A DNA stretch of 59,238 nucleotides from a virus. Its lineage: Duplodnaviria; Caudoviricetes. Below are positions 21,771 through 55,982 of the stretch, piece after piece. A program made the translations under genes and the position numbers. Position 1 is the first letter of the stretch. Every line of letters begins with the position of its first letter. The notes beneath the pieces are model-generated. The model ran no database searches. It was not told where the DNA came from and was given only the letters and a program-made list of their open reading frames with translations. The stretch is from the IMG/VR virus record IMGVR_UViG_3300049925_000138, positions 1-59,238 of that record, one strand, 5' to 3'.

Positions 21771-24259
21771 TGTCTTACAAGAAAAGCGAAGTTAAGAAGA
21801 TTGCACTTGAGTACTTTGACGGTGATGATCTTGCCCCTGATGTCTTTGCAAAGTATGCTTTGCAAAATCATGACGGAGATTATCTAGAGGCAAGCCCTGA
21901 TCAAATGCATCGCCGCTTGGCACGAGAGTTCAATCGCATTGAAATGAAGTATAAAAACCCACTAAGTGAAGATGAAATTTTTAATTTGCTAAGTCGGTTT
22001 GAAAATATTATCCCTCAAGGCTCTCCGATGTCTGGAATTGGGAATCCACTTCAGCTTCAATCTCTTTCAAATTGTTTTGTTATTGATCCTCCACATGATT
22101 CTTATTCGGGAATTCTTTTTACTGATCAAGAGCAAGTTCAAATTATGAAGCGTCGTGGTGGAGTTGGCCACGACATCACCAACATTCGCCCAAAGGGAAT
22201 GCCAACTTCTAATGCCGCCAAGACCACTGATGGAATTGGTGTCTTTATGGAAAGATTCTCTAATTCTACTCGTGAAGTTGCTCAAGGCGGCCGGCGTGGT
22301 GCATTGATGATGACAATCGACTGTCGTCATCCCGAGATTGAGACTTTCATTAACATTAAGCGTGACCTAAAGAAGGTTACCGGTGCAAACCTGTCAGTTC
22401 GATGGACTGATGAGTTTATGAAAGCTGTTAGAGATGGATCTGATTTTTGTCTTCACTGGCCTGTTGGATCAAGCAATCCCGAAATTAAAAATGTTGTTAA
22501 TGCTCGACAAGTTTGGGACAAGTTCATTGATGCAACTCATGCTTCGGCTGAGCCCGGCGCTCTATTTTGGGATACACTGATCAATAATAGCATTGCTGAT
22601 TGCTATAGTGATGTTGGTTATAAGACCATTTCTACAAATCCGTGCGGTGAGCTTCCTCTTCCTCCATATGATTCTTGTAGATTGATGGTTGTTAATCTTA
22701 CATCTTTTGTTTTGAATCCATTCACTGATAAATCAAAATTTGATTTTAATCGTTTTGGTGATGTTGTCCTGAAAGCTCAGCGGTTGATGGACGACTTGAT
22801 CGATTTAGAAATTGAAAGTGTTGATAATATTATTGCAAAGATTACAAACGATCCAGAGCCCCTGTCTGTTAGACGCGTTGAAATTGATCTTTGGCATAAG
22901 ATTAGAAATACTTGTTTAAATGGTCGTCGAACTGGTCTTGGCATCACTGGTCTTGGTGACGCTTTGGCAGCTCTTGGAATGAAATATGGTGCCAGCGACT
23001 CTATTGATATGACTGAAGCCATTTATCAGCATCTTGCGATGTGGTCACATATTTCATCTGTGAAAATGGCTGAGGAGCGCGGCGCATTTCCTGTCTTTGA
23101 CTGGAACAAAGAGAAAGATCATGTTTATTTGAATAAGATTATGGACGCCGCCGTAAATGTCTATCCTGACATCAAAAATATGTGGAAGACAACGGGTCGT
23201 AGAAATATTGCAAATACAACTACCGCTCCTGTGGGATCTGTTTCTTGTCTTACTCGTACAACCTCTGGCATTGAGCCTGCATTCCTTTTGTCTTATAAGC
23301 GTCGCCGTAAGATTACACAAGGTGATTTAGAATCTCGTGTTGATTTTGTTGATGCTATGGGAGATAAGTGGCAGGAATACATTGTCTATCATCACTGGTT
23401 TAAGAAATGGATGGAAGTTTCTGGTAAAACCAATGTAGAAGAGAGTCCATATTGGCAAGCAACAGCCAATGATATTAACTGGGAAGATTCTGTCAAGATT
23501 CAGGCCGCCGCTCAGCGTTGGGTTGATCACTCTATTTCTAAGACTTGTAATCTACCAAATAGCGCCTCAAAAGAGCTTGTTCATGAAATTTATATGAAGG
23601 CTTGGTCTCTTGGTTGCAAGGGATTCACAATTTATCGTGATGGTTGTCGTGACGGCGTTCTTGTTAATGATGTTCCCGCTCCCGAAATGAAGAAAGACGA
23701 AGAGACAAGATCTTCTCCTAAGAGACCGAAGTCTCTTCCTTGTGATATTCATCGTGCAAGTATTAGAAATGGTAATGTGACTGAATCTTGGCTTGTTTTG
23801 GTTGGTCTTAATGATGGAAAGCCATATGAGGTATTTTGCGGAATGCCTGAGTTAATTGAGTTTCCAAAGAAGTACAAGTCTGGATCTATCACAAAGAATG
23901 GCAAGCGTAATGGAGTCACAACTTATAATTTGCTTGTTCCTGTAGGCGACGGTGAAAATCTTGTTTTCAAAGACATCACCGATTTGTTCAACAACCCAAC
24001 AGAAGGCGCATTCACTAGAACAATTTCGCTCGCTCTACGGCATGATGTGCCATTGCATTATGTGGTCGAACAGTTGCAAAAAGATAAAAATAGCGATATA
24101 TTTTCATATGCCCGGGTTATTTCACGGGTATTAAAAGGGTACATCAAGGATGGGACCAAAACGACTGGGAATAAATGTACAAACTGCGGCAGTGGGGACC
24201 TTGTCTACCAAGAAGGTTGTCTCTCATGCAAGAGCTGCGGTCACGCTAAGTGCGGATAA
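21770..24259 (+). CDS. nrdJ: Class II (adenosylcobalamin-dependent) ribonucleotide reductase
   Basis: SLSNC, RRGGVG, QGGRRGALM, TNPCGE, RRTGLG.TGL, AP.GS.S, TSGIEP, SISKT.N, C-terminal CxxC..CxxC ribbon; no beta subunit adjacent; TAATG coupling. Confidence 0.9.
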   Translation: MSYKKSEVKKIALEYFDGDDLAPDVFAKYALQNHDGDYLEASPDQMHRRLAREFNRIEMKYKNPLSEDEIFNLLSRFENIIPQGSPMSGIGNPLQLQSLSNCFVIDPPHDSYSGILFTDQEQVQIMKRRGGVGHDITNIRPKGMPTSNAAKTTDGIGVFMERFSNSTREVAQGGRRGALMMTIDCRHPEIETFINIKRDLKKVTGANLSVRWTDEFMKAVRDGSDFCLHWPVGSSNPEIKNVVNARQVWDKFIDATHASAEPGALFWDTLINNSIADCYSDVGYKTISTNPCGELPLPPYDSCRLMVVNLTSFVLNPFTDKSKFDFNRFGDVVLKAQRLMDDLIDLEIESVDNIIAKITNDPEPLSVRRVEIDLWHKIRNTCLNGRRTGLGITGLGDALAALGMKYGASDSIDMTEAIYQHLAMWSHISSVKMAEERGAFPVFDWNKEKDHVYLNKIMDAAVNVYPDIKNMWKTTGRRNIANTTTAPVGSVSCLTRTTSGIEPAFLLSYKRRRKITQGDLESRVDFVDAMGDKWQEYIVYHHWFKKWMEVSGKTNVEESPYWQATANDINWEDSVKIQAAAQRWVDHSISKTCNLPNSASKELVHEIYMKAWSLGCKGFTIYRDGCRDGVLVNDVPAPEMKKDEETRSSPKRPKSLPCDIHRASIRNGNVTESWLVLVGLNDGKPYEVFCGMPELIEFPKKYKSGSITKNGKRNGVTTYNLLVPVGDGENLVFKDITDLFNNPTEGAFTRTISLALRHDVPLHYVVEQLQKDKNSDIFSYARVISRVLKGYIKDGTKTTGNKCTNCGSGDLVYQEGCLSCKSCGHAKCG

Positions 24260-24329
24260 CAGCAATCCTAGAAATAATTCTAAGGTTGCTGAAGAGCTAG
24301 AAATCAACTTTGACACAACGGAGTATGCA

Positions 24330-24932
24330 GTGAATTTTATTGCTGAAGTTTCTAATCATATCAAGTCGATTGAGCTGAAGGTTGATCCAATCATCATTCG
24401 CGTGAATGAATTTACTGAAGAGTCTGCTAAGGAGTTTACTGACGCAATGAGCCGGGCCCAGAACACCGGCCAGGGTGTCATTCCTATTGTTATTGATAGT
24501 TATGGTGGCCAGGTTTATTCTCTTATGGCTATGATTGGTGCAATCAAGGCTTCTCGTCTTCCTGTTGCAACGATTGTTGAAGGTAAGGCAATGAGTTGTG
24601 GTGCCATTCTCTTCAGCTTTGGTGCTAAGGGAATGCGGTACATGGATCCTGACGCTACTCTTATGATTCATGATGTTTCTTCTTCGGCTTATGGAAAGGT
24701 CGATGAGTTGAAGGTTAGTGTTCGTGAAGCCGAGCGCCTGAATGAAAAGGTGTATAAGATGATGGCGCGCAATTGTGATAAGGATGAAAATTATTTTCTT
24801 GAGCTTGTTCATCAAAAGGGTCATGCTGATTGGTTTCTTGATGCTAACGAGTGTGTGACTCATAATCTTGCAAATCATTTGAAGATTCCAACTCTTACTT
24901 GTAAGGTTGATCTGAACTTTAAGCTGGAGTAA
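24330..24932 (+). CDS. clpP: ClpP-like protease subunit
   Basis: IDSYGGQV, GKAMSCG (catalytic Ser), LMIHD (His), DWFLDA.E; GGAG RBS before GTG 24330. Confidence 0.85.
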   Translation: MNFIAEVSNHIKSIELKVDPIIIRVNEFTEESAKEFTDAMSRAQNTGQGVIPIVIDSYGGQVYSLMAMIGAIKASRLPVATIVEGKAMSCGAILFSFGAKGMRYMDPDATLMIHDVSSSAYGKVDELKVSVREAERLNEKVYKMMARNCDKDENYFLELVHQKGHADWFLDANECVTHNLANHLKIPTLTCKVDLNFKLE

Positions 24933-24934
24933 AA

Positions 24935-25126
24935 TTGTCTAATAGAGCTATGAAACTTGTAATATGGAGAATGATTTCAATTATTACAAGTATCATGCTG
25001 AATGGATTGATTACCGGGAGCTGGAATATGGCTCTCGGTATTGTTATTTTCAATAGTGTTATTTTGACATTTGGACAAGCAATTTTTGAATCACAGTGGG
25101 AGAAGCGGTTTGGAACAAGAAATTAG
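24935..25126 (+). CDS. Small membrane protein (DUF2061-like)
   Basis: K..IWR.IS....., ITGSW..A, two hydrophobic helices, FE..W. Confidence 0.55.
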   Translation: MSNRAMKLVIWRMISIITSIMLNGLITGSWNMALGIVIFNSVILTFGQAIFESQWEKRFGTRN

Positions 25127-25766
25127 TCATTCAAATAAAGTTGAGCTTGTAGGATGGTATGGATCTGATGAAATTCATGCGCTCTCTGCTTGGACATCTA
25201 CTTCAAGAGATCTTGATGAAGAGAAGCGCGGTCGTATCCCACAGCTCTTGAAGATGCTTGCTGAACAAGGTCATCACACTCCTTTTGAAAAGAGTTCTCT
25301 CCATTTTCTTGTGACTGTAGATTGCGCTACACATATTCACCTTTTGAAGCACCGAATTGGTGTGTCAATCAATGGTGAGTCTGCTCGATATAAAGAATTG
25401 AAAGACGACAAGTTTTATGTTCCACGCGACTGGCCACTTGATGAGCAAGAGTCTTACATTACTTTTATGGAAGACGCAATTAAGAAATATCATGAATGTT
25501 TAGAGCGACTTGTTAAAGGAGGGATGAAGCGCAAGAGAGCTAAAGAAACTGCAAGATTTTATCTTCCTTATGGAAATCAAATCACAATGGATGTGATGTT
25601 TAATTGGCGCTCTTTTAGCCATTTTCTTGGTTTGAGGATGAAACCAGAAGCTCAGCTTGAGATTAGTAATCTTGCTGAAGAGATGTTAAGGCAAGTTGCA
25701 AAAATTGAAAATAAGCCATTTAAGCATACAATTCGAGCTTTTGGTTTAAATAATACACTGTACTAA
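25110..25766 (+). CDS. thyX: FAD-dependent thymidylate synthase
   Basis: GHHTPFE, HLLKHR..SINGESARY (RHRxxSxxxxSxR variant), AKETARFYLP, LRMKPEAQLEI; likely TTG start at 25110. Confidence 0.9.
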   Translation: MEQEISHSNKVELVGWYGSDEIHALSAWTSTSRDLDEEKRGRIPQLLKMLAEQGHHTPFEKSSLHFLVTVDCATHIHLLKHRIGVSINGESARYKELKDDKFYVPRDWPLDEQESYITFMEDAIKKYHECLERLVKGGMKRKRAKETARFYLPYGNQITMDVMFNWRSFSHFLGLRMKPEAQLEISNLAEEMLRQVAKIENKPFKHTIRAFGLNNTLY

Positions 25767-26947: not shown

Positions 26948-26965
26948 CATTATTTGAGGTGTGCT

Positions 26966-27769
26966 ATACCTGAAGGCGCAGAGTGTAGAGTCGTTGCAGA
27001 AAGTCTTGCTCGTGTATTGACCAATAAGTCAATTGAAAATATTGAGATTTTATCTGGTCGTTATAGCAAAAAGCCGTTTGATGGCTTTCAACAACTTGTT
27101 GCAAGTTTGCCTAAACGAGTTGTTGGTGCCGGCTGTCACGGAAAGTTTATTTATATTCTTCTTGATGGCGGCGATTCATCAATTTGGAATACACTTGGTA
27201 TGACGGGTGGATGGACAAATTCAATTACGCGACACACCAGGGTGGTTCTGACCCTCACTGGAGGTGAAAAGGTATATTATAATGACATTAGAAACTTTGG
27301 TACTCTAAAGTGGTCAGAGGGTCGTAAGGCCCTTGCAAAGAAATTGAAATCTTTAGGGCCGGATATGTTGGCAACTGATGTTTCTGATGATGATTTTCAA
27401 AATGCTTTGCTTGCATATCCAAAATTAACACTTGCTGAATCAATTATGGATCAAGGAATCATTTCAGGTGTCGGAAATTATGTAAAAGCTGAATCTTTGT
27501 GGAGAGCGTCATTGTCTCCTCATAGAATTGTTGATTCACTTTGTTTAGAAGAGTTTCAACTTTTGAATAGCAGCATTAAAGATGTTCTTCGTGAATCATT
27601 TGCATCACAAGGAGCCACGATCAAATCATATAAAAACTTCAACAATGAAGTTGGTAAGTTTGAAATGAAATGTTATGGCAGGGCGAATGATGCAAATGGT
27701 GAAATTGTAAAGAAAGAAGATACAAAAGACGGAAGAGCTACTTGGTGGGTTCCTACCCGACAGGTATAA
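26966..27769 (+). CDS. Fpg/Nei family DNA glycosylase/AP lyase (Nei-like, zincless finger), probable ATA start
   Basis: (M)PEGAE N-terminus, HGKFI, LGMTG.W, YNDIRNFG, LGPD, H2TH MDQ..ISGVGNY.KAE.LW; C-terminal GRATWWVP..Q lacking Cys ligands. Confidence 0.9.
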   Translation: MPEGAECRVVAESLARVLTNKSIENIEILSGRYSKKPFDGFQQLVASLPKRVVGAGCHGKFIYILLDGGDSSIWNTLGMTGGWTNSITRHTRVVLTLTGGEKVYYNDIRNFGTLKWSEGRKALAKKLKSLGPDMLATDVSDDDFQNALLAYPKLTLAESIMDQGIISGVGNYVKAESLWRASLSPHRIVDSLCLEEFQLLNSSIKDVLRESFASQGATIKSYKNFNNEVGKFEMKCYGRANDANGEIVKKEDTKDGRATWWVPTRQV

Positions 27770-27809: not shown

Positions 27810-28040
27810 ATGAAGTTAAAGCTATCTGATCAAGTAATTGCACGCATGGTTGATCTACTGCAGATTGCCATTTTGACTGGCACTGACATTGTTGATAATT
27901 TTAGAACTCTTACTCTTGTTCCTGAGGATGGGTTATTGATTATTCACCCTGATGATAATGCTGCTTTTGTTGAAGCTGTTAATAATCTTGCTGCAAAAGC
28001 TGCATCTCTTGAAAAGAGTGATTCGTATGAGCTTACCTGA
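27810..28040 (+). CDS. Hypothetical protein
   Basis: AAGGAG RBS; KLSDQVIA..V.LLQ.AILTGTDIVDNFR. Confidence 0.6.
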   Translation: MKLKLSDQVIARMVDLLQIAILTGTDIVDNFRTLTLVPEDGLLIIHPDDNAAFVEAVNNLAAKAASLEKSDSYELT

Positions 28041-28404
28041 TAAGTTAGACGATATGTTCACACTCCGTAAGGAGTTTATGGACATGCTGAATGAGAAAAT
28101 GGATGCATATCCTCCACTTCCTCTTGATCTAACTAACAAAAAGTCTCAAATTCTTCTTCGTGACATCACCTTAAAAGGTGTAGAAGAAATATTTGAAGCT
28201 CTTCAAGAATTAAAAAATGTAAAATCACATCGCCAAACTGATATTCCTCATTTTGATCGCGATGCTTTTCTTGAAGAAAATGTAGATGCTCTCAATTTTT
28301 TCTTCACAAGTTTAAGACTTGTAGGTGTCACCTCTGAAGAGCTTTATGATGCGTATGTAAAAAAGCATCAAAAGATTTGTCAGCGTTTGAATGATGGATA
28401 TTGA
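28027..28404 (+). CDS. All-alpha NTP pyrophosphatase (MazG/dimeric dUTPase/dCTPase-like)
   Basis: EEIFE (ExxE), K.HR, LEENVD (EExxD), ELYDAYVKK...QRLNDGY. Confidence 0.8.
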   Translation: MSLPDKLDDMFTLRKEFMDMLNEKMDAYPPLPLDLTNKKSQILLRDITLKGVEEIFEALQELKNVKSHRQTDIPHFDRDAFLEENVDALNFFFTSLRLVGVTSEELYDAYVKKHQKICQRLNDGY

Positions 28405-39122: not shown

Positions 39123-39186
39123 TTTTACAAGCCAAGGTATTTCAATATTGCCTTGGCTTGTAAAATTTTAGGTTGTTGATTATAAT
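39121..39186 (+). promoter_or_regulatory. 17-bp inverted repeat (terminator/operator) overlapping a sigma70 promoter
   Basis: AATTTTACAAGCCAAGG(39121-39137)/CCTTGGCTTGTAAAATT(39151-39167); TTGTAA(39158)-N17-TATAAT(39181). Confidence 0.75.
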
Positions 39187-39202: not shown

Positions 39203-40264
39203 ATGAAAATTGGTTATAGTTTTTGGGGGTTCCTGACCCCCTTTGACCAGCTGTCCGTCACTGCAACTCCCGATCATTATCGCGGTGGTCGAATTGACAT
39301 TGTTGAAGAGATGACCCGCCGAGGTCACGAAGTCTATCGACTGCAAGTTCAGCGTGACCAACACCCTTATCCAAACATTCAACAAGCTGACAAGTATTTT
39401 CCTGATGTTGATCTTGCTCTTTTTGAATGGCGATGGCCGACTTGGAAGAACGATCCCGCCATTGGTGGGACTCGCGCAACTGAACCTGATTATCATCGTC
39501 AAATGGAGTGCTTGCGTTATTATCACAACAAAGGAACTCCTATCATCATTCACGATGGTGATTTGCAAATGACTCATAATGATGAGCTTATGTTTCCAAA
39601 TGCAATTTTGACTGATGCTTGCAAGACTCCTCGAGTTCTCACTCGTAAGCGTTCATTTCTCCCCTGGGTCTCAGCTTCAAAGAAAATGTTTGCTCCAGCT
39701 GAGTATGCTTATGATTACACTTATGTTGGAAACAATTACGACCGCGACCCACAATTTATGAAGTATTATTCAGCACCCAGTTTTCATCTGCGTCGTCTGG
39801 GTATTCAGACAAAGGTGTGGGGCAATTGGCTTGAGCGCTCTCCAGAGCGCCGTGATCCTGTTTATCTTATTCAACAGCATCCACACATTGCATTTGGTCA
39901 TCGACTCTCTTATAAGGACATTTTCACAGCACTCAATAAGTCTATCGCTGTGACACATATTACTCGTGATGAGTATGCTCTTTATGGCAATATTACAATG
40001 CGATTTACTGAATCGTATCAGGCGGGTGTTGTTTCACTGATTCCTGCAGAATATACTGACGCTTTGCCAATTGGATTGGGTGAATTTGTTGTGAAAGACC
40101 ACGAAAGCGTTATTCGAGCAGTGACTTCACTTAATCAAATGAGCGTAAGAGAGCGCGGAATGATTGTTGAGCAGCAATTTGCTGAGTTGAAAAAGCTTGC
40201 TGATCCAAGTCCAGAAAATCATCTCAATATTATTGAAGACCTTGTAAAGAACTACAATCCTTAA
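39203..40264 (+). CDS. GT-B glycosyltransferase, T4 beta-glucosyltransferase-like (putative DNA glycosyltransferase)
   Basis: MKIGYSFWG start, GHEVY, YDYTYVGN, GNITMRFTESYQAGVVSLI resembling the BGT C-terminal ITLRVWE..A segment (recalled, not aligned); first gene of nucleotide-modification operon. Confidence 0.65.
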   Translation: MKIGYSFWGFLTPFDQLSVTATPDHYRGGRIDIVEEMTRRGHEVYRLQVQRDQHPYPNIQQADKYFPDVDLALFEWRWPTWKNDPAIGGTRATEPDYHRQMECLRYYHNKGTPIIIHDGDLQMTHNDELMFPNAILTDACKTPRVLTRKRSFLPWVSASKKMFAPAEYAYDYTYVGNNYDRDPQFMKYYSAPSFHLRRLGIQTKVWGNWLERSPERRDPVYLIQQHPHIAFGHRLSYKDIFTALNKSIAVTHITRDEYALYGNITMRFTESYQAGVVSLIPAEYTDALPIGLGEFVVKDHESVIRAVTSLNQMSVRERGMIVEQQFAELKKLADPSPENHLNIIEDLVKNYNP

Positions 40265-40278
40265 TCAGGAATTAAAGA

Positions 40279-40794
40279 ATGATTCTTACTTTTGAAGGCC
40301 CTGATCGATCAGGTAAGTCAGAGATTTCTTCTGCTCTATCGATTGATTTGGGTATTCCTCGCTTTAAAAACAAAGGCGAGTGGCTTGATGATATCAAAAA
40401 CTCTTCGTATTTTGTAAATACACTCACATATGGCAACACAATGCTCATTGATTTTATTGAGCAAGTCCAATGTGATGTTATTTTTGATCGTCATTACCCA
40501 TCTGAATGGGTTTATTCTCGATTTTTTGGTCGTCAAACAAATGAGCAAGTTCTTAGAAAGATTGATGATAAACTTGCTGAAATGGGCGCAATGATTGTTA
40601 TTTGCCGCCGAAAGTCGTATAATGGCATTCAAGACGATCTTTATTCATACATTGATAGTGATGCTCTGAAAAAGATTGATGCACTTTACGAAGATTTCAC
40701 AAAATGGACAAAGTGCAAGGTTCTTACATTGTGGGTTGATGATGAAAATTTGACCCGCGAAATTACTGAAATTAAGGAGTGGATCAAATCTTGA
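40279..40794 (+). CDS. Deoxynucleoside monophosphate kinase (thymidylate kinase-like)
   Basis: TFEGPDRSGKS P-loop, IFDRHYPSEWVY. Confidence 0.8.
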   Translation: MILTFEGPDRSGKSEISSALSIDLGIPRFKNKGEWLDDIKNSSYFVNTLTYGNTMLIDFIEQVQCDVIFDRHYPSEWVYSRFFGRQTNEQVLRKIDDKLAEMGAMIVICRRKSYNGIQDDLYSYIDSDALKKIDALYEDFTKWTKCKVLTLWVDDENLTREITEIKEWIKS

Positions 40795-41774
40795 AAACTT
40801 ATAAGAACTTTACTTCTGCTTATATTGATTTAGCTCGAATGATTCGGGACAATTTTGATTTTGAAGTGAGTCCTCGCGGAATGAAAGTGAAGGAAAAGTT
40901 GGGTGTTCAATTCCGAATCACTAATCCGCGCAATCGTCTCCCTTATGTGAAGGGTAGAAACTTTTCATTGTCGTATTTTGTGGCGGAATCTATTTGGTAT
41001 ATGAGTGGCTCTAATAGCACAGAGTGGATTTCAAAATATGCTCCATTTTGGCGTAATATTAGTGATGATGGAGTCACTGCAAATTCGGCGTATGGAGCTC
41101 GAATCTTTAAGACAAATCCTCGAATTGCTGGAAGCCAGTTAATTCAATGGAATTATGTTCTTGAAGAGCTTCGCCGGGATCCTGATTCACGCCGGGCAGT
41201 TATTCATATCAGAACTCCAGATGATTCGATCTCTGCAAAGAAAGATATGCCTTGCACTCTATCGCTGCAGTTCTTTATTCGAGAAAACAAGCTGCACTTG
41301 CATGTGAGTATGAGATCAAGTGATGTTATCCTTGGTCTTGCTTATGATGTTCCTGCTTTTACTCTTATGCAAGAAGTAATGGCAAATGATCTTGGAGTAG
41401 AACTGGGTGAATATGTTCATACAAGCAATTCACTTCATTGTTATGATCGTGATTATGAAATGCTTAATGACATTGCCAATACTCAGCTTGATTCAAATTT
41501 TGAAAACAGCAATTATTTGGAAATGCCGCCCTTGCCAAAGGAGTTTCCAACTGATGAGTTGTTTAAGCTTGAAGCCAATGTTAGCAAAATGAAAAATGAA
41601 GTAGACCCAATCGTCAATTTTGACGGCCAACCTACTTCAGAAAGTGTGCATCTTATTCAAGATTGGATTTTTATTCTTCGATCTGCTCAAGCTCGAAAGA
41701 TGAAGAATCAATTTCTATGTGATCAATACATCAACTTGACCAGCTTTAATGGTTATCATTACTTTAGGAGATAA
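40791..41774 (+). CDS. Thymidylate synthase-fold enzyme, probable dCMP hydroxymethylase-like base modifier
   Basis: NSAYG.R, DPDSRRAV, DMPCT..LQF.IR..KL...V.MRSSD..LGLAYD (Asp at the ThyA Asn177 position), SLHCY. Confidence 0.8.
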   Translation: MKTYKNFTSAYIDLARMIRDNFDFEVSPRGMKVKEKLGVQFRITNPRNRLPYVKGRNFSLSYFVAESIWYMSGSNSTEWISKYAPFWRNISDDGVTANSAYGARIFKTNPRIAGSQLIQWNYVLEELRRDPDSRRAVIHIRTPDDSISAKKDMPCTLSLQFFIRENKLHLHVSMRSSDVILGLAYDVPAFTLMQEVMANDLGVELGEYVHTSNSLHCYDRDYEMLNDIANTQLDSNFENSNYLEMPPLPKEFPTDELFKLEANVSKMKNEVDPIVNFDGQPTSESVHLIQDWIFILRSAQARKMKNQFLCDQYINLTSFNGYHYFRR

Positions 41775-41775
41775 A

Positions 41776-42783
41776 ATGAGAAATAAGCATGTTCTTGTGA
41801 CTGGTGGATGTGGATTTATCGGATCGTATGTTGTTCGTGAACTTGTTCAACACGATTACATTGTTGATATTGTTGATGATATGTCGGCCGGGTCTTTAGA
41901 CTCTCTGAATGGCCTTACCTTTAGGTGTGTTCCTGGCAGTCTTCTTCAGGCTTACGAAGATAAGCATCCCCAAACTGATCGTCAGCCTGGATCGATCTTA
42001 GTAATTGAAGATGATTTTGCTTCTAGAAGAATTATGGAAAGGTCGGCCAAGGGCCGATGGGGTGCCATTTTTCATTTAGCCGCAATGCCACGGGTTGCTT
42101 ATTCTGTTGAGAATCCTTTTGATTCAAATTCGACAAATGTGACAAAGACTTTGGCTCTTCTTGAAAATATTCGAAATACTGATACAAAGTTTGTCTTTTC
42201 TTCGTCATCTGCAGTTTATGGAGATGCAGAAAATATTCCAACAAGTGAATATGATATGACGAATCCTCAATCTCCATATGGTTTGCAAAAGAGAATTGTT
42301 GAAGATTACCTTGTCATCTTTGGTCGTCTCTACAACCAGCATAGCGTCTGTTTGCGTTATTTTAATGTTTATGGTCCTGGGCAAGATGGATCGTCTCCTT
42401 ATTCGACGGCTGTTTCAGCTTGGTGTTCTGCTCTAAAGAATGGTCAGCCTTTGCGGTCTGATGGTGATGGTGAGCAGTCTCGTGATCTTGTGTTTGTGAC
42501 AGATGTCGCTCGAGCAAATAGATTGGCTGCTGAATCACAGGATCCTTTTAGAGGTCATTCAATCAATATTGGCTCTGGGGTCTCTTACACAAATAATCAA
42601 ATTCTTGATAAGCTTAAGAGCAAATTTCCATCTTTGCAAGTTCAAAATGCTCCAGCCCGAGAGGGTGATGTGAGAGCTACCAGGGCTGACATCAGCATTG
42701 CTGAAGTAGTTATTAATTGGTCACCTCTTGTTAGTTTTGATGATGGACTTGCTTTTACGCTTAATTGGTGGGAATTGCAATGA
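41776..42783 (+). CDS. NAD-dependent nucleotide-sugar epimerase/dehydratase (extended SDR)
   Basis: LVTGGCGFIGS, FHLAA, FSSSSAVYG, PYGLQK (YxxxK), LRYFNVYGP, GDGEQSRD..FV.DV. Confidence 0.9.
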   Translation: MRNKHVLVTGGCGFIGSYVVRELVQHDYIVDIVDDMSAGSLDSLNGLTFRCVPGSLLQAYEDKHPQTDRQPGSILVIEDDFASRRIMERSAKGRWGAIFHLAAMPRVAYSVENPFDSNSTNVTKTLALLENIRNTDTKFVFSSSSAVYGDAENIPTSEYDMTNPQSPYGLQKRIVEDYLVIFGRLYNQHSVCLRYFNVYGPGQDGSSPYSTAVSAWCSALKNGQPLRSDGDGEQSRDLVFVTDVARANRLAAESQDPFRGHSINIGSGVSYTNNQILDKLKSKFPSLQVQNAPAREGDVRATRADISIAEVVINWSPLVSFDDGLAFTLNWWELQ

Positions 42784-43352
42784 AAAATAATGAGTTAGTT
42801 CTTTTTCTGGGACCTATGTTTTCTGGGAAGACAACCCGACTGCTGGCAGCAATTGAGCGCCATATTTTACGCCAGCAGTCCGTTGTTTGTTTTAAGCCCA
42901 AAATTGATGACAGGTATTCAGACAATGAAATTGTCACTCATTCTAAGTTAAAAATTCCAGCCGTTTCAGTTAAAAACTGGAATGAGATTATGAAAGCAGT
43001 CAATGATATGCCAAGCAAGCCAAATGTGATTGCAGTTGATGAAGCATTCATGATTGAAGATTGCCATAAGGCTCTTCTTTCTTTATTTGCTGCAGGAATT
43101 ACAATCTATGTGTCGTCGATTGATATATCTGCAAATTTGAATTCATTCACTGTAATTGACAAGTTGCTTCCATATTCAACACAAGTTGTGAAGTGCGCTG
43201 CAATTTGTGCCTCGTGTTTAGGTGATGCGCAACTTACTTATAGAAAGTTTGCGTCAAGTGCAGAAATTTCTGTTGGCGGCGGCGACAGTTATGAACCGCT
43301 ATGTTGGTCTTGTCACCCACTTGTAGAAAAAAAGCCCTGGTTGCAGGTATAA
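42780..43352 (+). CDS. tdk: Thymidine kinase (type II)
   Basis: GPMFSGKTT, KPKIDDRY, VDEA, CxxC...VGG..SYEPLCxxC. Confidence 0.9.
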   Translation: MKNNELVLFLGPMFSGKTTRLLAAIERHILRQQSVVCFKPKIDDRYSDNEIVTHSKLKIPAVSVKNWNEIMKAVNDMPSKPNVIAVDEAFMIEDCHKALLSLFAAGITIYVSSIDISANLNSFTVIDKLLPYSTQVVKCAAICASCLGDAQLTYRKFASSAEISVGGGDSYEPLCWSCHPLVEKKPWLQV

Positions 43353-43375
43353 TTAGGCTGTTAAAAGGACAAAAC

Positions 43376-44218
43376 ATGTTTGATCCATCAAGTGTAAATT
43401 TAGTCATTTATCACGGCAATTGTTCTGATGGTTATGGCGCTGCATGGGCAGCTTGGAAACTATTAGGTGATCGTGCAGAATATCTTCCAGCATTTTATGG
43501 ACAACCTGCTCCTGATGTGAAAGGTAAAACTGTTGTTTGTCTTGACTTCAGCTATGATAATGCTACTACAAAAAGACTTATTAGCGAAGCTGATAACTTT
43601 TATATTATTGATCATCATAGAACCGCTATGATTAATCTTCATGATGTGTCAAATACTCATTTTGATATGAATCATAGCGGTGCATATCTTTCTTGGAAGT
43701 TCTTTCATCCTGGTAAAGAAGTTCCAAGATTAATCAAGTATATTGAAGATCGTGACTTGTGGAAGTGGGAAATGCCTTACTCAAAAGAGTTTTCGACATT
43801 TTTTTACACTGTTCCATTTGACTTTGAAGAGTATGACAACTATCTTGATGATAGTGCAATTGATGCAGCACAAGAAAGTGGATCGCATATTGTAGCATAC
43901 ACCAAAGCTGCAATTTCACGGCTTATCAAAAAGCCTGCAATGAGAAAGCTTGACGGTAAGTCAGTTGCTGTTATTAACACATCTCAATGGGTTGATGAAA
44001 TTGGTAATGCTCTTGCTATAAAATGTGACTTTGCTCTTATGTGGCATTATGATCATAAATTAAATATGACTTCTGTTAGCCTGCGTGCGTTTCATGATGA
44101 TGTTGATGTGAGTGAAGTTGCAAAGCGCTTTGGTGGTGGGGGTCACAAAAAGTCTGCAGGTTTTAGATTAGAAAATGGTCGGTTTATTGAATCTATCTTT
44201 GATAAAGAGAGTGAATAA
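43376..44218 (+). CDS. DHH/DHHA1 phosphoesterase
   Basis: YHGNCSDG, LDFS, IDHH, IEDRDLW, SLR, GGGGH.KSAGF. Confidence 0.85.
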   Translation: MFDPSSVNLVIYHGNCSDGYGAAWAAWKLLGDRAEYLPAFYGQPAPDVKGKTVVCLDFSYDNATTKRLISEADNFYIIDHHRTAMINLHDVSNTHFDMNHSGAYLSWKFFHPGKEVPRLIKYIEDRDLWKWEMPYSKEFSTFFYTVPFDFEEYDNYLDDSAIDAAQESGSHIVAYTKAAISRLIKKPAMRKLDGKSVAVINTSQWVDEIGNALAIKCDFALMWHYDHKLNMTSVSLRAFHDDVDVSEVAKRFGGGGHKKSAGFRLENGRFIESIFDKESE

Positions 44219-44659
44219 ATGAACGAACGCCATCTTCAAAAAATGAGAACTTATATGAATATTTGCGAGTCAATCGCATCTTTGTCATATGATCCCAAAT
44301 TTAAAGTTGGAACAGTCATCATAACAGATGATTTTCGTGAAATTTGTGCTGTTGGTTATAATGGAAACTATAAGGGTGGTCCAAACGCGCGTGATTCAGA
44401 AGAAACAGGTGGTTCTGGATTCCTTCATAGTGAAGAGAACGCACTTTTTCATTTAGGAAAGCCTTATGAATTGCGAGGTTATTTAACAATGCTTTGCACT
44501 CATAAGCCTTGTCCAATGTGCGCAAAGCGAATTGTGAATTCAGGACTTAAAAAAGTAATTTATAAGACTGATTATACAGCTTTGGGACATGGTGCTGATG
44601 ATATTTTTGAAAAATCAGAAATCACCTGTGTAAGTATCGATCAATACGCCTTGAAATAG
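44219..44659 (+). CDS. dCMP deaminase
   Basis: KVG.VI, GYNG, HSEEN (HxE), PCPMCAK. Confidence 0.85.
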   Translation: MNERHLQKMRTYMNICESIASLSYDPKFKVGTVIITDDFREICAVGYNGNYKGGPNARDSEETGGSGFLHSEENALFHLGKPYELRGYLTMLCTHKPCPMCAKRIVNSGLKKVIYKTDYTALGHGADDIFEKSEITCVSIDQYALK

Positions 44660-44665
44660 TTAAGG

Positions 44666-44698
44666 TGCTTCACAATATTCAGTTGTGAAGCATATTTA
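44666..44698 (+). promoter_or_regulatory. 10-bp inverted repeat abutting ATATTTA motif
   Basis: TGCTTCACAA(44666-44675)/TTGTGAAGCA(44683-44692), ATATTTA 44692-44698. Confidence 0.5.
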
Positions 44699-45072: not shown

Positions 45073-45774
45073 ATGAAATTTAATGAATTAGAGATCGAAA
45101 AAATTATCAAAGAAACTTTGACCGGTCGCAAAACACAGCTAGAAGAGTCTGTGATCAATGAAGCTTATGTTGTGTCTGCTCGCAAGTATGATTTAACAAC
45201 TGAAAAATTGAGTGAGGAAAATAAGCAGGCTCATGAAGCTCTTATGGAAGGATACGTCAAATCTTTAAATGAGATTTCGGCAAATCTTGAAACTGCTGAT
45301 AGAGAAAATGTTGGTCCCAATGGATCCACATTTCGTAATTTAAAGCTTGATGAAGCATACAACTTGAATGCTGTATTCCTTCATGGAATGTTTTTTGAAA
45401 ATATATCAGATATGCGTTCGCAAGTGTCAATGGATTCACTCTCTTATATGAGATTTGAGCGTGACTGGGGTTCTTTTGAAGCTTGGCAGCGCGATTTCAT
45501 TGCGTGTGCAATGAGCGCTCGAAATGGTTGGGTTGTGACGGTCTATAACTTTATGCTTCGTAGATATATGAATGTGATTGTTGATCTTCACAGCACAGGT
45601 ATTCCATTCTCCTCAGTTCCAGTTGTAGTTCTTGATTGTTGGGAACATTCATATTATCGTGATTACTTAAAAGATCGTAAGTCTTATGTCTTTTCAATGA
45701 TGAAAGAGTTGCGTTGGGAAAAAATTGAAGAGAGAATTAGAAGAGTTGAGCGCATGGCCGAGGCTCTAAAATGA
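45073..45774 (+). CDS. Fe/Mn superoxide dismutase-family protein with N-terminal leader
   Basis: AHEAL..GY, NAVFLHGMFFENI, WGSFEAW..DF, GWVV, LDCWEHSYY.DY. Confidence 0.85.
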   Translation: MKFNELEIEKIIKETLTGRKTQLEESVINEAYVVSARKYDLTTEKLSEENKQAHEALMEGYVKSLNEISANLETADRENVGPNGSTFRNLKLDEAYNLNAVFLHGMFFENISDMRSQVSMDSLSYMRFERDWGSFEAWQRDFIACAMSARNGWVVTVYNFMLRRYMNVIVDLHSTGIPFSSVPVVVLDCWEHSYYRDYLKDRKSYVFSMMKELRWEKIEERIRRVERMAEALK

Positions 45775-46583
45775 ATAAAAACAATATCAAAAAAATCATT
45801 TTAAAAGAAATGTATGGAACAAGTCTCAGGGTCTTATACGAGGCCGATGAACCAGCTGATCCAACAGCGCCAGCCCCAGGTGCCGAGCCTGCCCCACCAG
45901 CTCCTGACGCTGCTGCTCCCCCTGGGGCTCCGCCACCTCCTGGTGGCGACCCAACAGCTCCAGGTGCCCCTCCTGGCGGTGATCCAGGTGCTCTTGGTGG
46001 AGGGCCACCTGGTGCTCCTCCTGATCTTTCGATGCCCCCAATGGGTGGTGGTCTTCCTCCAATGGGTGGGCCGCCTGGACCTCCTCCCGGACCACCAGGC
46101 GCTCCTCCAATGGGCGGGCCTCCTGGAGCACCTCCTAAAAAAGAAAATAAACCAAAGCCTGCTAAAGCTCCTAATCCTGATAAACAACAGGTTGCTTCAA
46201 AACTTCATACTGCATTAATGAATGCAATTTCGAGTGCAAGTCAAGATATTTCCGAAAGTCTTAAAAAGAAAAGTTTGCGCTTTCTTTATGAAGAAGATGA
46301 AAAATCAAATGACAAAAACGCTCCAAAAATTGATATGGAAAAATACGCAGGAGAAGTTGCAAACTTAATAAATAATTACACATCACTTATTGATATCAAA
46401 AAGAGTGTAATCACTCAAGCTGAACAGGATCTTGATACCCAATTTCCAAATGACGGTGTTGCTCTTAAAAAGCAATTAAAAGATTTACTGCGAACACAAT
46501 ACCATCTATCATTAGAAAAACAAAATGAACCACCAGAAACTTATGCAGTCGGAGCGAAGAGCGGCGCAGGAGGCCCTGCGTGA
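45771..46583 (+). CDS. Proline/glycine-rich low-complexity protein
   Basis: ~100-aa PPG/GGPPG tract flanked by LR.LYE motifs. Confidence 0.65.
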   Translation: MNKNNIKKIILKEMYGTSLRVLYEADEPADPTAPAPGAEPAPPAPDAAAPPGAPPPPGGDPTAPGAPPGGDPGALGGGPPGAPPDLSMPPMGGGLPPMGGPPGPPPGPPGAPPMGGPPGAPPKKENKPKPAKAPNPDKQQVASKLHTALMNAISSASQDISESLKKKSLRFLYEEDEKSNDKNAPKIDMEKYAGEVANLINNYTSLIDIKKSVITQAEQDLDTQFPNDGVALKKQLKDLLRTQYHLSLEKQNEPPETYAVGAKSGAGGPA

Positions 46584-49273: not shown

Positions 49274-49657
49274 ATGAGCAGGTTCCAAGTTTCGAGCTTG
49301 CTACGCGAATATTTTGATCATCAACCACAAGTTGGGGTTATACGAGACTTTTCAATAGATACAAGAAACCTTCCGGTCAGTCCTGCAGCAACTTCTAAGT
49401 GGGTTGTCAAGGACAGACCGGAGCGTTTATGTAGAACATTTGAGTTTTCTAATCGCGAATCTTGTCGTCATTTTATGAATGAATTGATGGATTATGAAGA
49501 TCGTAGCAAACATCACGCTGTGATTAAGTGTCATGGAACAATATTGACACTTGAAATTAACACCAAAGACATTGATTGTGTGACTGAACTTGATAAAGAT
49601 TATGCAAAAGAAGCAGATGCAATTTATGATGAAATGAGGGCATATGGAAGCATCTGA
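49274..49657 (+). CDS. Pterin-4-alpha-carbinolamine dehydratase-like protein
   Basis: W......LCRTFEF.N....FMN.L..YE....HHA.I......LEINT.D...VTELD..YA..AD. Confidence 0.75.
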   Translation: MSRFQVSSLLREYFDHQPQVGVIRDFSIDTRNLPVSPAATSKWVVKDRPERLCRTFEFSNRESCRHFMNELMDYEDRSKHHAVIKCHGTILTLEINTKDIDCVTELDKDYAKEADAIYDEMRAYGSI

Positions 49658-54284: not shown

Positions 54285-55871
54285 ATGAGCGAAGCCTTCA
54301 GAAATCTTGTTTTTGATAGTGACGCTCGAGATAGTCTTAAAGCTGGTGTTGATGCTTTGGCAAAAGCTGTCAAGGTGACAATGGGTCCCAGTGGTCAAAA
54401 TGTGATTATCGAAATGCCAGGTGCTCCTCCTATTGTCACAAAGGATGGTGTGACCGTTGCAAGAGCCATCAATTTCAGAGACAGAAATATGAATCTGGGG
54501 GCTCAGATTATTAAGGAAGCCGCCAGTCGAACTTGTGATGCCGCTGGTGATGGAACAACCACATCAACTGTTTTGGCACAATCAATTTTTAATGGAGGGC
54601 TTCGTGTTCTTTCAGGAGATCACAGTTATCCTGAAATGCGTGCAGGAATGCAGTGGGCTGTAAACGCTCTTATAAATGAATTGCGATTTATGGCCCGTCA
54701 AATAACTTCTGATGAAGAGGTTATCCAAGTAGGAACCATTTCGGCAAATGGTGAAAGAAGTATTGGTGAACTTCTTGCCCAGGCAATGAAAGCTGTGGGA
54801 CGAGATGGAACAATCACTGTTGAAGATGCTAAAGGGTTTGGAACATCTTTACAGGTTGTTGAAGGAGCAGAAATTGATCGCGGCTATCTTTCACCTTATT
54901 TTGTGACTGATTCAGAAAAAATGGTGGCCACTCTTGAGTCTCCATACATTTTGCTAACAAACAATAGAATCACATCACTTAAAGAAATTTTGCCAATTCT
55001 TGAAAAAGTGCATAATGCTCAAAAGCCTATCTTAATTGTTGCTGATGAAGTTGAAGGCGAAGCAATGCAAGGACTTGTTTTAAATCGCACAAAGGGAATC
55101 ATTAATGTTTGTGCAATTAAGGGTCCTGAATTTGGTGAAAATCGTCTTCATGCTTTACAAGATTTAGCAATTTTGTTAGGAACACGAGTTGTTGGTGATG
55201 ATCTTTCAACCATTCAGCTTGGAGAGCTTGGTCGTTGTAAGCGTGTAATTGTAGGAAGGTATCGTTCAATTTTCATTGATGCAATGGGTGAAAAAAATCT
55301 TATTGCAGCTCGATCAACTGAATTGCGCTCACAATTGAGTGATATGACTCTTGAATCACACGACATTGAAGCTTTAAAGCGACGCTTGTCTCGTTTAGCT
55401 GGTGGAGTTGCAGTGCTAAGAGTTGGTGGCGCTACAGAAGCTGAATTAAAAGAGAGGCGTGATCGAGTTGATGATGCTCTACACGCTACTCGAGCAGCGG
55501 TTGAAGAAGGAATTCTTCCGGGCGGAGGAACTGCTCTTGTTAGAGCCGCAGCAAAAACTAGATCAAAAATTTCACGAAATTCGTCTGATTCATTTAAGCA
55601 AGGCGCTGATGTAATTTTGCAAGCATGTGTTGTTCCACTAAAACAAATTGTGATTAATGCAGGTCTCAATCCTGATATGGTTCTTTCTAAAGTTGAAAGA
55701 CTAAAGGGTGATAATGGATTTAATGCTTCAACTGGCAAATATGTAAGTACATTTGAAGCGGGAATTCTTGATCCATTAAAAGTTGTGAGACTTGCACTTG
55801 AGAACGCACATTCAGCTGCAAGCGTTTTGTTGAGTGTTGGATGCACTGTAGTCGATGATAATCCTGCATAA
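54285..55871 (+). CDS. groEL: Phage-encoded group I chaperonin GroEL
   Basis: AVKVTMGP.G.NV, TKDGVTVA, AGDGTTT, DRGYLSPYF, RL.RLAGGVAV..VGG.TE.E..ER.DRV.DAL.ATRAAVEEG; no GGM tail. Confidence 0.95.
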   Translation: MSEAFRNLVFDSDARDSLKAGVDALAKAVKVTMGPSGQNVIIEMPGAPPIVTKDGVTVARAINFRDRNMNLGAQIIKEAASRTCDAAGDGTTTSTVLAQSIFNGGLRVLSGDHSYPEMRAGMQWAVNALINELRFMARQITSDEEVIQVGTISANGERSIGELLAQAMKAVGRDGTITVEDAKGFGTSLQVVEGAEIDRGYLSPYFVTDSEKMVATLESPYILLTNNRITSLKEILPILEKVHNAQKPILIVADEVEGEAMQGLVLNRTKGIINVCAIKGPEFGENRLHALQDLAILLGTRVVGDDLSTIQLGELGRCKRVIVGRYRSIFIDAMGEKNLIAARSTELRSQLSDMTLESHDIEALKRRLSRLAGGVAVLRVGGATEAELKERRDRVDDALHATRAAVEEGILPGGGTALVRAAAKTRSKISRNSSDSFKQGADVILQACVVPLKQIVINAGLNPDMVLSKVERLKGDNGFNASTGKYVSTFEAGILDPLKVVRLALENAHSAASVLLSVGCTVVDDNPA

Positions 55872-55887
55872 TTTTTTTCAGGAAAAT

Positions 55888-55953
55888 ATGCAAATCCGGC
55901 CACCACTATAGTATATTAATTCTGGAAGGCAGGAATGGTCAAGCCTTCCAGAA
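55888..55953 (+). promoter_or_regulatory. ATGCAA-class promoter followed by an 11-bp leader hairpin
   Basis: ATGCAA-N18-TATATT; TTCTGGAAGGC(55920-55930)/GCCTTCCAGAA(55943-55953). Confidence 0.5.
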
Positions 55954-55982
55954 AATGAAATGTAATGAGGTAGATTGAAGCA

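Follow-up and report, generated by a model that had tools for sequence, protein, structure and literature searches.

Phage T4 builds glucosylated 5-hydroxymethylcytosine (5hmC) into its DNA with a dCMP hydroxymethylase (gp42), a kinase (gp1), a dCTPase (gp56), a deaminase (Cd) and an alpha- and a beta-glucosyltransferase (AGT and BGT); its b-gt gene and gene 42 are adjacent, as are their counterparts in the locus described here. We analysed a viral contig of 59,238 bases (IMG/VR record IMGVR_UViG_3300049925_000138, positions 1 to 59,238; Duplodnaviria, Caudoviricetes; hereafter the window), in which seven genes at positions 39203 to 44659 directly follow dnaE. We propose that this operon is probably a glycosyl-5hmC module, in which, judging from the sequences, a T4-like replacement of cytosine before replication would be joined to a DNA glycosyltransferase (GT) acting after replication. 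Like T4 it encodes a dNMP kinase and a dCMP deaminase; its TS-fold enzyme has the diagnostic residues of the T4 dCMP hydroxymethylase, and the donor domain of its transferase is homologous to that of BGT. It differs from T4 in its replicase (DnaE instead of a family B polymerase), in its kinase (Tmk-like, not gp1-like), in its single transferase, which lies outside the Pfam family PF09198 and has an acceptor domain that cannot be aligned, and in the UDP-sugar 4-epimerase inside the operon; a pathway-specific dCTPase is not evident in the window.

Two further systems come close. In the TET-type phage clusters ("subclass II"; Pyle et al., 10.1101/2023.12.21.572611, in the part of that text available to us), a phage GT is likewise paired with a sugar epimerase, GT activity needed the partner epimerase and placed a hexose, an N-acetylhexosamine (HexNAc) or a hexuronic acid on 5hmC, and GT-B enzymes were often found near thymidylate synthase (TS) homologs (~28%). 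In the tested TET pathways 5hmC arises after replication, through a C5-methyltransferase and a TET-like dioxygenase, whereas the route predicted for the window is pre-replicative and runs through a TS homolog. The arabinosyl-5-hydroxycytosine pathway of phages RB69 and DLP3 (PMC13326640, available text), part of a wider theme of glycodiverse cytosines built on TS-homolog products, has in common with the window a TS-fold enzyme acting on dCMP, a Tmk-like kinase, DNA GTs and sugar-nucleotide genes of its own. However, its enzymes are flavin-dependent hydroxylases with the substitution D169N (residue numbers of TS homologs are those of E. coli ThyA throughout), whereas the window keeps D169, and its arabinose is made by an isomerase, kinase/pyrophosphorylase and phosphatase set that is absent from the window. 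The logic of T4, epimerase-dependent glycosylation of 5hmC and the association of GT-B enzymes with TS homologs are already known, the last two from the available text of 10.1101/2023.12.21.572611, and an earlier reading of the window made from its letters alone (the sequence-only reading), which had announced a new pathway, was overstated in this respect.

Among cultured phages, Enterococcus phage VPE25 and Lactobacillus phage ATCCB have some of the closest TS homologs (38-43% identity, with D143, D169 and D177 kept). By depositor annotation, the VPE25 homolog stands beside a beta-glucosyltransferase and a "nucleotide sugar synthetase-like protein", and in ATCCB a TS homolog, a beta-glucosyltransferase and a UDP-galactopyranose mutase lie side by side. 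Both phages differ from the window in being small siphoviruses of Bacillota without DnaE synteny, and their transferases are recognisable members of the BGT family. The window has no near cultured relative (DnaE identity at most 31%, TS homolog identity below 45%), and a megablast of the whole operon against phage records gave no match; the description of its source as a non-T-even phage replicating with DnaE is supported. Literature searches, which did not cover the supplements of the key papers, returned nothing on this GT family or on an hmC glycosylation module in DnaE phages. The available part of the "moraphage" paper (PMC12619734) makes no mention of DnaE, thymidylate synthase or an epimerase, and the lineages cannot be equated.

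Layout of the gene block

The long open reading frames (ORFs) of the window lie on the + strand, with one exception. All seven genes that the sequence-only reading had placed directly after dnaE are found at their positions and on this strand:

35637..39122, +: DnaE-type DNA polymerase III alpha, the syntenic anchor (PF07733, 2.8e-59; also PF17657, PF14579 and PHP)
39158..39186, +: sigma-70-like promoter match TTGTAA-17-TATAAT, inside the 81 nt that separate dnaE from the transferase gene (pattern match only)
39203..40264, +: GT-B glycosyltransferase gene, 353 aa, with an ATG start (a TTG at 39173 is a possible alternative)
40279..40794, +: Tmk-like (d)NMP kinase (phrog_761 thymidylate kinase, 2.1e-10)
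40779..41774, +: TS homolog, predicted dCMP hydroxymethylase (PF00303, 6.6e-32)
41776..42783, +: extended short-chain dehydrogenase/reductase (SDR) epimerase (PF01370, 1.8e-46; phrog_540, 3.8e-64; alternative start 41749)
42765..43352, +: thymidine kinase (TK), nucleotide salvage (PF00265, 1.4e-37; NF003296, 2.1e-39)
43301..44218, +: DHH/DHHA1 phosphoesterase, NrnA/RecJ-like (phrog_4771, 2.4e-76; PF02272, 1.2e-5; PF01368, 4.9e-4; other start 43376)
44219..44659, +: dCMP deaminase (PF00383, 1e-17; phrog_174, 1.2e-32)
44665..44693, +: terminator-like hairpin with a 12-pair stem, just 3' of the deaminase stop codon (pattern match only)

Within the block the intergenic spacing ranges from -26 to +14 nt. 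The single promoter ascribed to it earlier does have a counterpart in the sigma-70-like site, but such sites are common in the region (24, versus 17.5 +/- 4.1 in shuffles), and these pattern matches are weak evidence for one promoter driving the block.

The TS homolog and its predicted product

As the sequence-only reading had noticed, the TS homolog contains the motif RSSDVILGLAYD, the last Asp of which stands opposite N177 of E. coli ThyA. In an alignment with E. coli ThyA, T4 gp42, SPO1 gp29, RB69 gp48 and others, all taken from annotated records, the Asp proved to be part of a full dCMP-hydroxymethylase signature: at E. coli positions 126, 143, 146, 147, 165, 167, 169 and 177 the homolog has R, D, C, T, M, S, D and D, identical to T4 gp42 at all eight, and its catalytic Cys (E. 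coli C146) is aligned. The comparison enzymes have the following diagnostic residues:

E. coli ThyA: L143, N177
SPO1 dUMP hydroxymethylase (gp29): N177
RB69 5-hydroxy-dCMP (5hodCMP) synthase (gp48): E143, N169

According to the available text of PMC13326640, N177D gives dCMP specificity, L143D/E accompanies hydroxymethylation, the acidic residue letting water in, and D169N is the marker of flavin-dependent hydroxylation in 5hodCMP synthases. The accessible part of PMC5175136 adds that Arg126 and Ser167 choose deoxyribose over ribose, and that MilA, a CMP hydroxymethylase, has Lys and Ala instead. MilA is also the best match of the TS homolog in the Protein Data Bank (PDB; 1.3e-38, versus 2.8e-22 for ThyA), and in their alignment the R and S of the homolog at positions 126 and 167 stand opposite K and A; the PF00303 match covers residues 14-231. 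Because the homolog has the T4 gp42 pattern at all diagnostic sites, its product is predicted to be 5-hydroxymethyl-dCMP, not dTMP, 5-hydroxymethyl-CMP or 5-hydroxy-dCMP, with the caveat that the rule of the acidic residue 143 is a correlation and not a proof of a hydroxymethyl product.

Two other products are very improbable for the TS homolog: 5-hydroxy-dCMP, known from RB69 and DLP3, in which case the sugar would be ether-linked directly at C5, and 5-methyl-dCMP. N177D and an acidic residue 143 are common to 5hodCMP synthases too (PMC13326640, available text), and the signature rules are based on a limited number of tested enzymes. However, D169N, seen in our RB69 gp48 control, does not occur in the window's homolog or in any of the 53 GT-linked homologs described below, all of which keep Asp169; there are no arabinose-nucleotide genes near the operon; and Asp143 argues against a methyl product (PMC13326640, in the same portion). 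Of the two bases that the sequence-only reading had allowed, hydroxymethyl- and hydroxycytosine, the first is supported and the second disfavoured.

That reading had also noted a separate thymidylate synthase and an all-alpha pyrophosphatase elsewhere in the window, and both are present:

25071..25766, +: ThyX, flavin-dependent thymidylate synthase (PF02511, 1.6e-36; TIGR02170, 106.5 bits versus a cut-off of 87.9)
27952..28404, +: all-alpha NTP pyrophosphohydrolase, candidate dCTPase/dUTPase (phrog_12184, 6.5e-13; PF08761, 2.5e-4)

By its family matches, ThyX is a separate source of dTMP, which bears on another account of the operon, that of ordinary nucleotide metabolism with the TS homolog as a second dTMP synthase and its neighbours unrelated. 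We find this account hardly credible. TK, dCMP deaminase, ThyX and ribonucleotide reductase do make up a broad dNTP supply set in this phage, but Asp177 and Asp143 are incompatible with the dUMP-to-dTMP signature, the homolog comes nowhere near the NCBIfam cut-offs for thymidylate synthases (100 bits versus 327 in the best case), and dTMP is already provided by ThyX.

The kinase encoded just before the predicted dCMP hydroxymethylase has the P-loop GPDRSGKS. Over its full length it is 23% identical (E 1e-5) to RB69p045, a "thymidylate kinase" located in the cytosine-modification cluster of RB69.

The TS homolog and its lineage relatives (320-351 aa) also have a C-terminal extension of about 100 residues (~232-331 in the window), absent from T4 gp42 (246 aa) and E. 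coli ThyA (264 aa). A quick IQ-TREE tree of 51 rows groups the window's homolog with those of the related viral loci L001 and L003-L007 (99% SH-aLRT); its branches are long and its deep forks open, and we draw no origin from it.

The glycosyltransferase and T4 BGT

The GT has 128 relatives at E <= 0.001 in a collection of 5.8 billion proteins, counted as cluster representatives. Most of them are unnamed, and many lie on contigs of 100-260 kb. From 62 family members we built an alignment and profile, A1. The model phrog_7922 ("beta-glucosyltransferase") was matched by 16 of the 62 and PF13524 (Glyco_trans_1_2) by 35. When the A1 profile was run against PDB sequences, its sole significant match was T4 BGT (E 1.1e-4). 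In hhalign comparisons A1 scored 60% with T4 BGT alone, 88.8% with the annotated b-gt of VPE25 and 96.1% (E 3.7e-9, 169 columns) with a 30-sequence BGT family, against 0.8% for T4 AGT as a negative control. The aligned span, A1 165-349 versus BGT 177-351, is the whole C-terminal donor domain. There the invariant R181, R267 and E270 of the GT stand opposite R195, R269 and E272 of BGT, which we take to be donor contacts; BGT R191 is opposite an Asn in the GT family alignment.

The fold agrees with the profile. An AlphaFold2 model of the GT (pLDDT 93.6, pTM 0.91) retrieved BGT 1c3j first in Foldseek (2.2e-10), and the top three rows of a VIA-align search were all BGT (Z 22.9-23.4, root-mean-square deviation 3.4-3.5, 303-309 residues). 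The best of these, 1qkj, aligned 308 of 351 residues (1-350 versus 1-351) with Z 23.4 and a deviation of 3.4. A feature search of the ESM Atlas had PF09198 clusters among its neighbours, which is a lead only. The "BGT-like" label of the sequence-only reading therefore holds by profile and by fold, and does not hold as a direct family match. We regard the GT, from its sequence profile, as a GT-B enzyme that shares the donor domain of BGT and does not belong to the BGT family in the Pfam sense (the T4 BGT family is presumably CAZy GT63). As a distant relative of T4 BGT, it is predicted to be a 5hmC-DNA glycosyltransferase.

The catalytic base of BGT is presumably Asp100, in the N-terminal domain. 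Candidates for this role in the GT are the invariant D70, D96 and D118. A forced global hhalign meant to place Asp100 had near-zero confidence in the N-terminal half and was discarded.

Recurrence in other viral loci

A scan of IMG/VR with the A1 profile yielded 57 loci containing a GT of this family (GT loci; locus numbers are prefixed with L), whose neighbouring genes we searched by tblastn with the window proteins:

DnaE relative: 55 of 57 GT loci
Tmk-like kinase: 49 of 57
TS homolog: 53 of 57
SDR match: 45 of 57, of which 42 at >=39% identity

Contig ends truncate three of the four GT loci that have no TS homolog (L002, L029 and L047); the fourth, L055, is not truncated. All 53 GT-linked TS homologs have both Asp177 and Asp169, and 51 have Asp143; L053 and L054 have Asn at this site.

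The genes recur in more than one arrangement. The window has the order GT-kinase-TS-SDR, as do six of the seven relatives nearest to it (L001, L003-L007, L026); the seventh, L002, ends at a contig edge just after the kinase. In L008-L024 and L034 the order is TS-mutase-GT-kinase-SDR, with a UDP-galactopyranose mutase gene added, and in L027-L040 it is kinase-GT-SDR2 ... SDR-TS, with a second SDR. GT relatives of 25-29% identity (L048-L056, DnaE 29-31%) again have a Tmk-like kinase gene and a TS homolog with Asp177 beside them. When loci were chosen by their SDR instead, a TS homolog was present in 9 of 80, five of these being GT loci again.

In L072, a 267-kb record, the kinase-TS slot is filled by a 440-aa protein of another family (L072:7663-8985), which has 433 relatives and in an ESM Atlas structure search reached TM 0.69-0.81 to GT1/GT4 GT-B clusters. 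This ORF had no Pfam match, no PDB sequence match and no hhalign match to A1, A2 or T4 AGT. Because the pairing recurs, rearranged and with at least one apparent non-homologous replacement, the GT is predicted to act on the product of the TS homolog in DNA; it is solely the gene neighbourhood that points to 5hmC in DNA as the acceptor.

Some smaller observations concern these loci. One ESM Atlas neighbour cluster of the L072 protein is named tRNA-queuosine mannosyltransferase, and a 48% identical relative of the protein is found in L076. A suspected GT-SDR fusion in L038 was rejected on finding that a stop codon separates the two ORFs. In L008, of the mutase-bearing subclade, an MT-A70-family adenine methyltransferase gene (PF05063, 4.6e-26; L008:11728-12456) lies between the DHH and dCMP deaminase genes; the window has no counterpart there.

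The epimerase and the sugar

The SDR carries the motifs TGGCGFIGS (the N-terminal GxxGxxG NAD site), SSSSAVYG (with the catalytic Ser) and SPYGLQK (the YxxxK motif), each opposite the corresponding motif of 6dnt, 4zrm and WbgU. A dehydratase would have Asp or Glu after the Ser/Thr. The SDR alone as a query gave no viral locus, and we used an alignment of its family, A3, as a profile. A3 scored highest with UDP-HexNAc/hexose 4-epimerases, namely 6dnt (267 bits), WbgU (244), the GalE of Thermotoga maritima (242) and WbpP (231), and lower with E. coli GalE (158) and human GALE (129). The score of the SDR against the TviC model was 123.6 bits, with a cut-off of 760. Opposite Y299 of E. coli GalE the SDR has a Thr, invariant in an 18-sequence phage family, and 6dnt, 4zrm and WbgU have Ser; a small residue at this "gatekeeper" position presumably admits N-acetylated sugars. 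By fold and motifs, we class the SDR as an NDP-sugar 4-epimerase of the WbpP/WbgU/GalE type.

As to the sugar itself, 21 of the 57 loci have a UDP-galactopyranose mutase gene beside the GT (PF03275, 1.3e-76 in L008, at L008:6850-7962, and 1.6e-52 in L048, at L048:6356-7456). The substrate of the mutase, UDP-galactose, is the product of a 4-epimerase. The triad annotated in ATCCB (TS homolog, b-gt and mutase) speaks for the same type of donor. Because these sister clades add the mutase, the evidence points to a galactose-type sugar, and it suggests galactofuranosyl-modified DNA in the mutase-bearing subclades. We give about an even chance to the SDR of the window making a galactose-type donor.

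In other GT subclades the extra gene encodes a second SDR or a small cupin. Some 140 aa long and similar to the C-terminal end of mannose-6-phosphate isomerase, the cupin (PF07883, 1.3e-6) follows the SDR in the seven nearest relatives as listed (L001, L003-L007, L026), and again at L068:11313. The window has neither cupin nor second SDR, its TK gene coming directly after the SDR. We entertain, tentatively and at somewhat less than an even chance, a broader picture: a widespread lineage of uncultured large DnaE phages that glycosylates its DNA with this transferase family, not known from cultured phages, and varies the sugar on pre-replicatively made 5hmC by swapping the sugar-nucleotide enzymes beside the GT. 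The window, with the 4-epimerase alone, would make galactosyl- or N-acetylgalactosaminyl-5hmC (Gal- or GalNAc-5hmC), relatives with epimerase and mutase would make galactofuranosyl-5hmC, and elsewhere a second SDR or the cupin would be the variant. Our literature searches found no description of Gal-, GalNAc- or galactofuranosyl-5hmC made by a TS-homolog route.

Proposed pathway

The pathway that we propose draws each of its steps from sequence and gene context. The TS homolog would convert dCMP, with methylene-tetrahydrofolate, to 5-hydroxymethyl-dCMP. The Tmk-like kinase would phosphorylate this nucleotide, and a host NDP kinase would complete hm-dCTP, which the phage DnaE replicase would incorporate. 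The BGT-like GT-B enzyme would then move a sugar from a UDP-sugar to the hydroxymethyl group in DNA. The 4-epimerase probably sets the donor, turning host UDP-Glc or UDP-GlcNAc into UDP-Gal or UDP-GalNAc, a step that has weaker support than the others. The outcome would be DNA resistant to restriction enzymes and Cas nucleases.

Points against the module

A number of results weigh against this reading. For the transferase, the single sequence had no match in Pfam (E <= 0.01), PHROG or NCBIfam, none among PDB sequences by phmmer at E <= 10, and tblastn found no relatives of it in 50,697 deposited phage records. None of the 62 family members matched the BGT model PF09198 at E <= 1, a model carried by all 42 relatives of T4 BGT in a comparison set. 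Other GT-B folds are statistically tied with BGT (PimA Z 22.5, BshA 22.0, T4 AGT 21.9), and the predicted fold alone does not single BGT out. The N-terminal acceptor domain cannot be aligned with BGT by profile.

These points leave some room for the view that a modified dCMP is made and that the GT acts on a protein, a lipid or a small molecule, the DNA having bare 5hmC or another derivative. In its favour, the acceptor domain has no sequence similarity to BGT, fold scores almost equal to that of BGT are reached by GT4 enzymes whose acceptors are lipids or small molecules, and the nearest ESM Atlas clusters by features are mostly bacterial PF13524 proteins. We nevertheless consider it improbable: the pairing of GT and TS homolog, found in 53 of 57 loci, persists through rearrangements and a fall in GT identity to 25%; in L072 the slot is taken by another GT-B family; and the one protein of solved structure to which sequence comparison links the GT is a DNA glucosyltransferase.

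For the epimerase, the SDR scored 154.5 bits against TIGR01179 (galE), whose cut-off is 262.3, and is not a named equivalog. The sugar chemistry differs even among close kin, since the nearest relatives have the cupin and the window does not. Moreover, L068, L069, L071 and L073 hold an SDR-TK-DHH-deaminase block behind DnaE (SDR 47-48% and DnaE 38-42% identity), and within 10 kb of it neither a GT nor a kinase nor a TS homolog is present. Their whole records (57-108 kb, CheckV 20-48% complete) contain no A1-type GT and no PF00303 homolog; one GT fragment was found in the four, at chance level (E 0.0017, 11.9 bits, 41 aa, internal stop). Because records without GT and TS homolog keep the SDR, this enzyme can exist without the module; its gene may belong to the phage backbone and be used by the module, or may have nothing to do with the module. 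The dedicated role given to the epimerase in the sequence-only reading is not secured in view of these partial records.

It is thus conceivable, though rather unlikely, that 5hmC is glycosylated with host UDP-glucose as the donor, giving T4-like glucosyl-5hmC, and that the SDR is a backbone gene with another role, in virion or host-envelope glycans. Beyond the block retained in the four records, one of which (L068) also keeps the cupin beside the SDR, this account can call on the distant GT relatives L049, L052, L054 and L056, which pair with a TS homolog and have no SDR match, and on the homology of the GT donor domain to that of a UDP-glucose enzyme. However, an SDR match is present in 45 of the 57 GT loci, and the records lacking GT and TS homolog are incomplete. 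The sugar-nucleotide genes beside the GT vary by subclade, which fits the tailoring of a donor, and one of them, the mutase, requires UDP-galactose, a product of a 4-epimerase. Phage GTs strictly dependent on an adjoining epimerase are known as well (10.1101/2023.12.21.572611, available text).

Upstream of the SDR, GT-less relatives such as L068 have a gene whose 304-aa product is Tmk-like in its N-terminal half and unassigned in its C-terminal half (L068:9026-9940), preceded by a gene of the GMP reductase/IMPDH family (L068:7938-9029; PF00478, 6.3e-74).

The last set of points concerns the completeness of cytosine replacement in the glycosyl-5hmC module. The pyrophosphohydrolase, to which a role like that of the T4 dCTPase gp56 had been assigned, matches gp56 over 40 C-terminal residues (E 6e-4, pairwise). 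The enzyme is also found in three of the four records without GT and TS homolog, and its distribution does not tie it to the pathway or to the exclusion of dCTP. The gp56-like role is not secured, and full replacement of cytosine is without support from a pathway-specific dCTPase.

Implications

If the glycosyl-5hmC reading is true, T4-style cytosine replacement and glycosylation would not be limited to T-even-like phages, and would be a standard feature of abundant uncultured large environmental phages with a bacterial-type replicase. The GT family (128 cluster representatives, 57 IMG/VR loci) would then be a new and easily recognised metagenomic marker of DNA glycosylation. The changing partners of the GT (epimerase, mutase, second SDR, cupin) would form a natural series for the evolution of donor specificity and a source of enzymes that add new sugars to 5hmC, with a use in 5hmC labelling. 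The DNA of such phages may resist restriction- or Cas-based handling.

Nucleotide supply and other genes of the window

The SDR-TK-DHH-deaminase block, and with it TK, DHH and the deaminase, is retained in relatives without GT and TS homolog; together with ThyX these are genes of general dNMP supply and not specific to the module. From its family matches, the DHH phosphoesterase would probably supply mononucleotides from oligonucleotides.

An Fpg/Nei-type DNA glycosylase is encoded at 26954-27769 (+; PF01149, 1.7e-14; PF06831, 9.5e-16). Several relatives also have it upstream of DnaE, and it is unusual cargo for a phage that would probably modify its own bases. A 384-aa ORF at 14453-15607 (+) has a weak match to family-A DNA polymerases (PF00476, 1e-7, below the cut-off; phrog_17, 4.4e-17) in a window that also encodes DnaE. 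RecA is encoded at 18080-19279 and ClpP at 24150-24932. We found no tRNA genes in the window.

The 701-aa ORF at 29922-32027 (+) stands out by the composition of the stretch around it, with 54.5% G+C, against 32-44% in all other 2-kb windows. It has no Pfam or PHROG match, contains several repeats of about 30 residues (L-x-F-N/D-G-x-D-L ... R-V/I-V-Y/F-A-G-x-S-G-x-L-V-D-S), and could be a fibre or decoration protein acquired from elsewhere.

Further unusual cargo lies within 45073-46583, 49274-49657 and 54285-57064. These stretches encode the C-terminal domain only of an Fe/Mn superoxide dismutase (PF02777, 7.9e-18), a Pro/Gly-rich ORF of 270 aa, a pterin-4a-carbinolamine dehydratase (PF01329, 9.8e-12), a GroEL-type chaperonin (PF00118, 1.6e-61) and a sigma-70 family factor.

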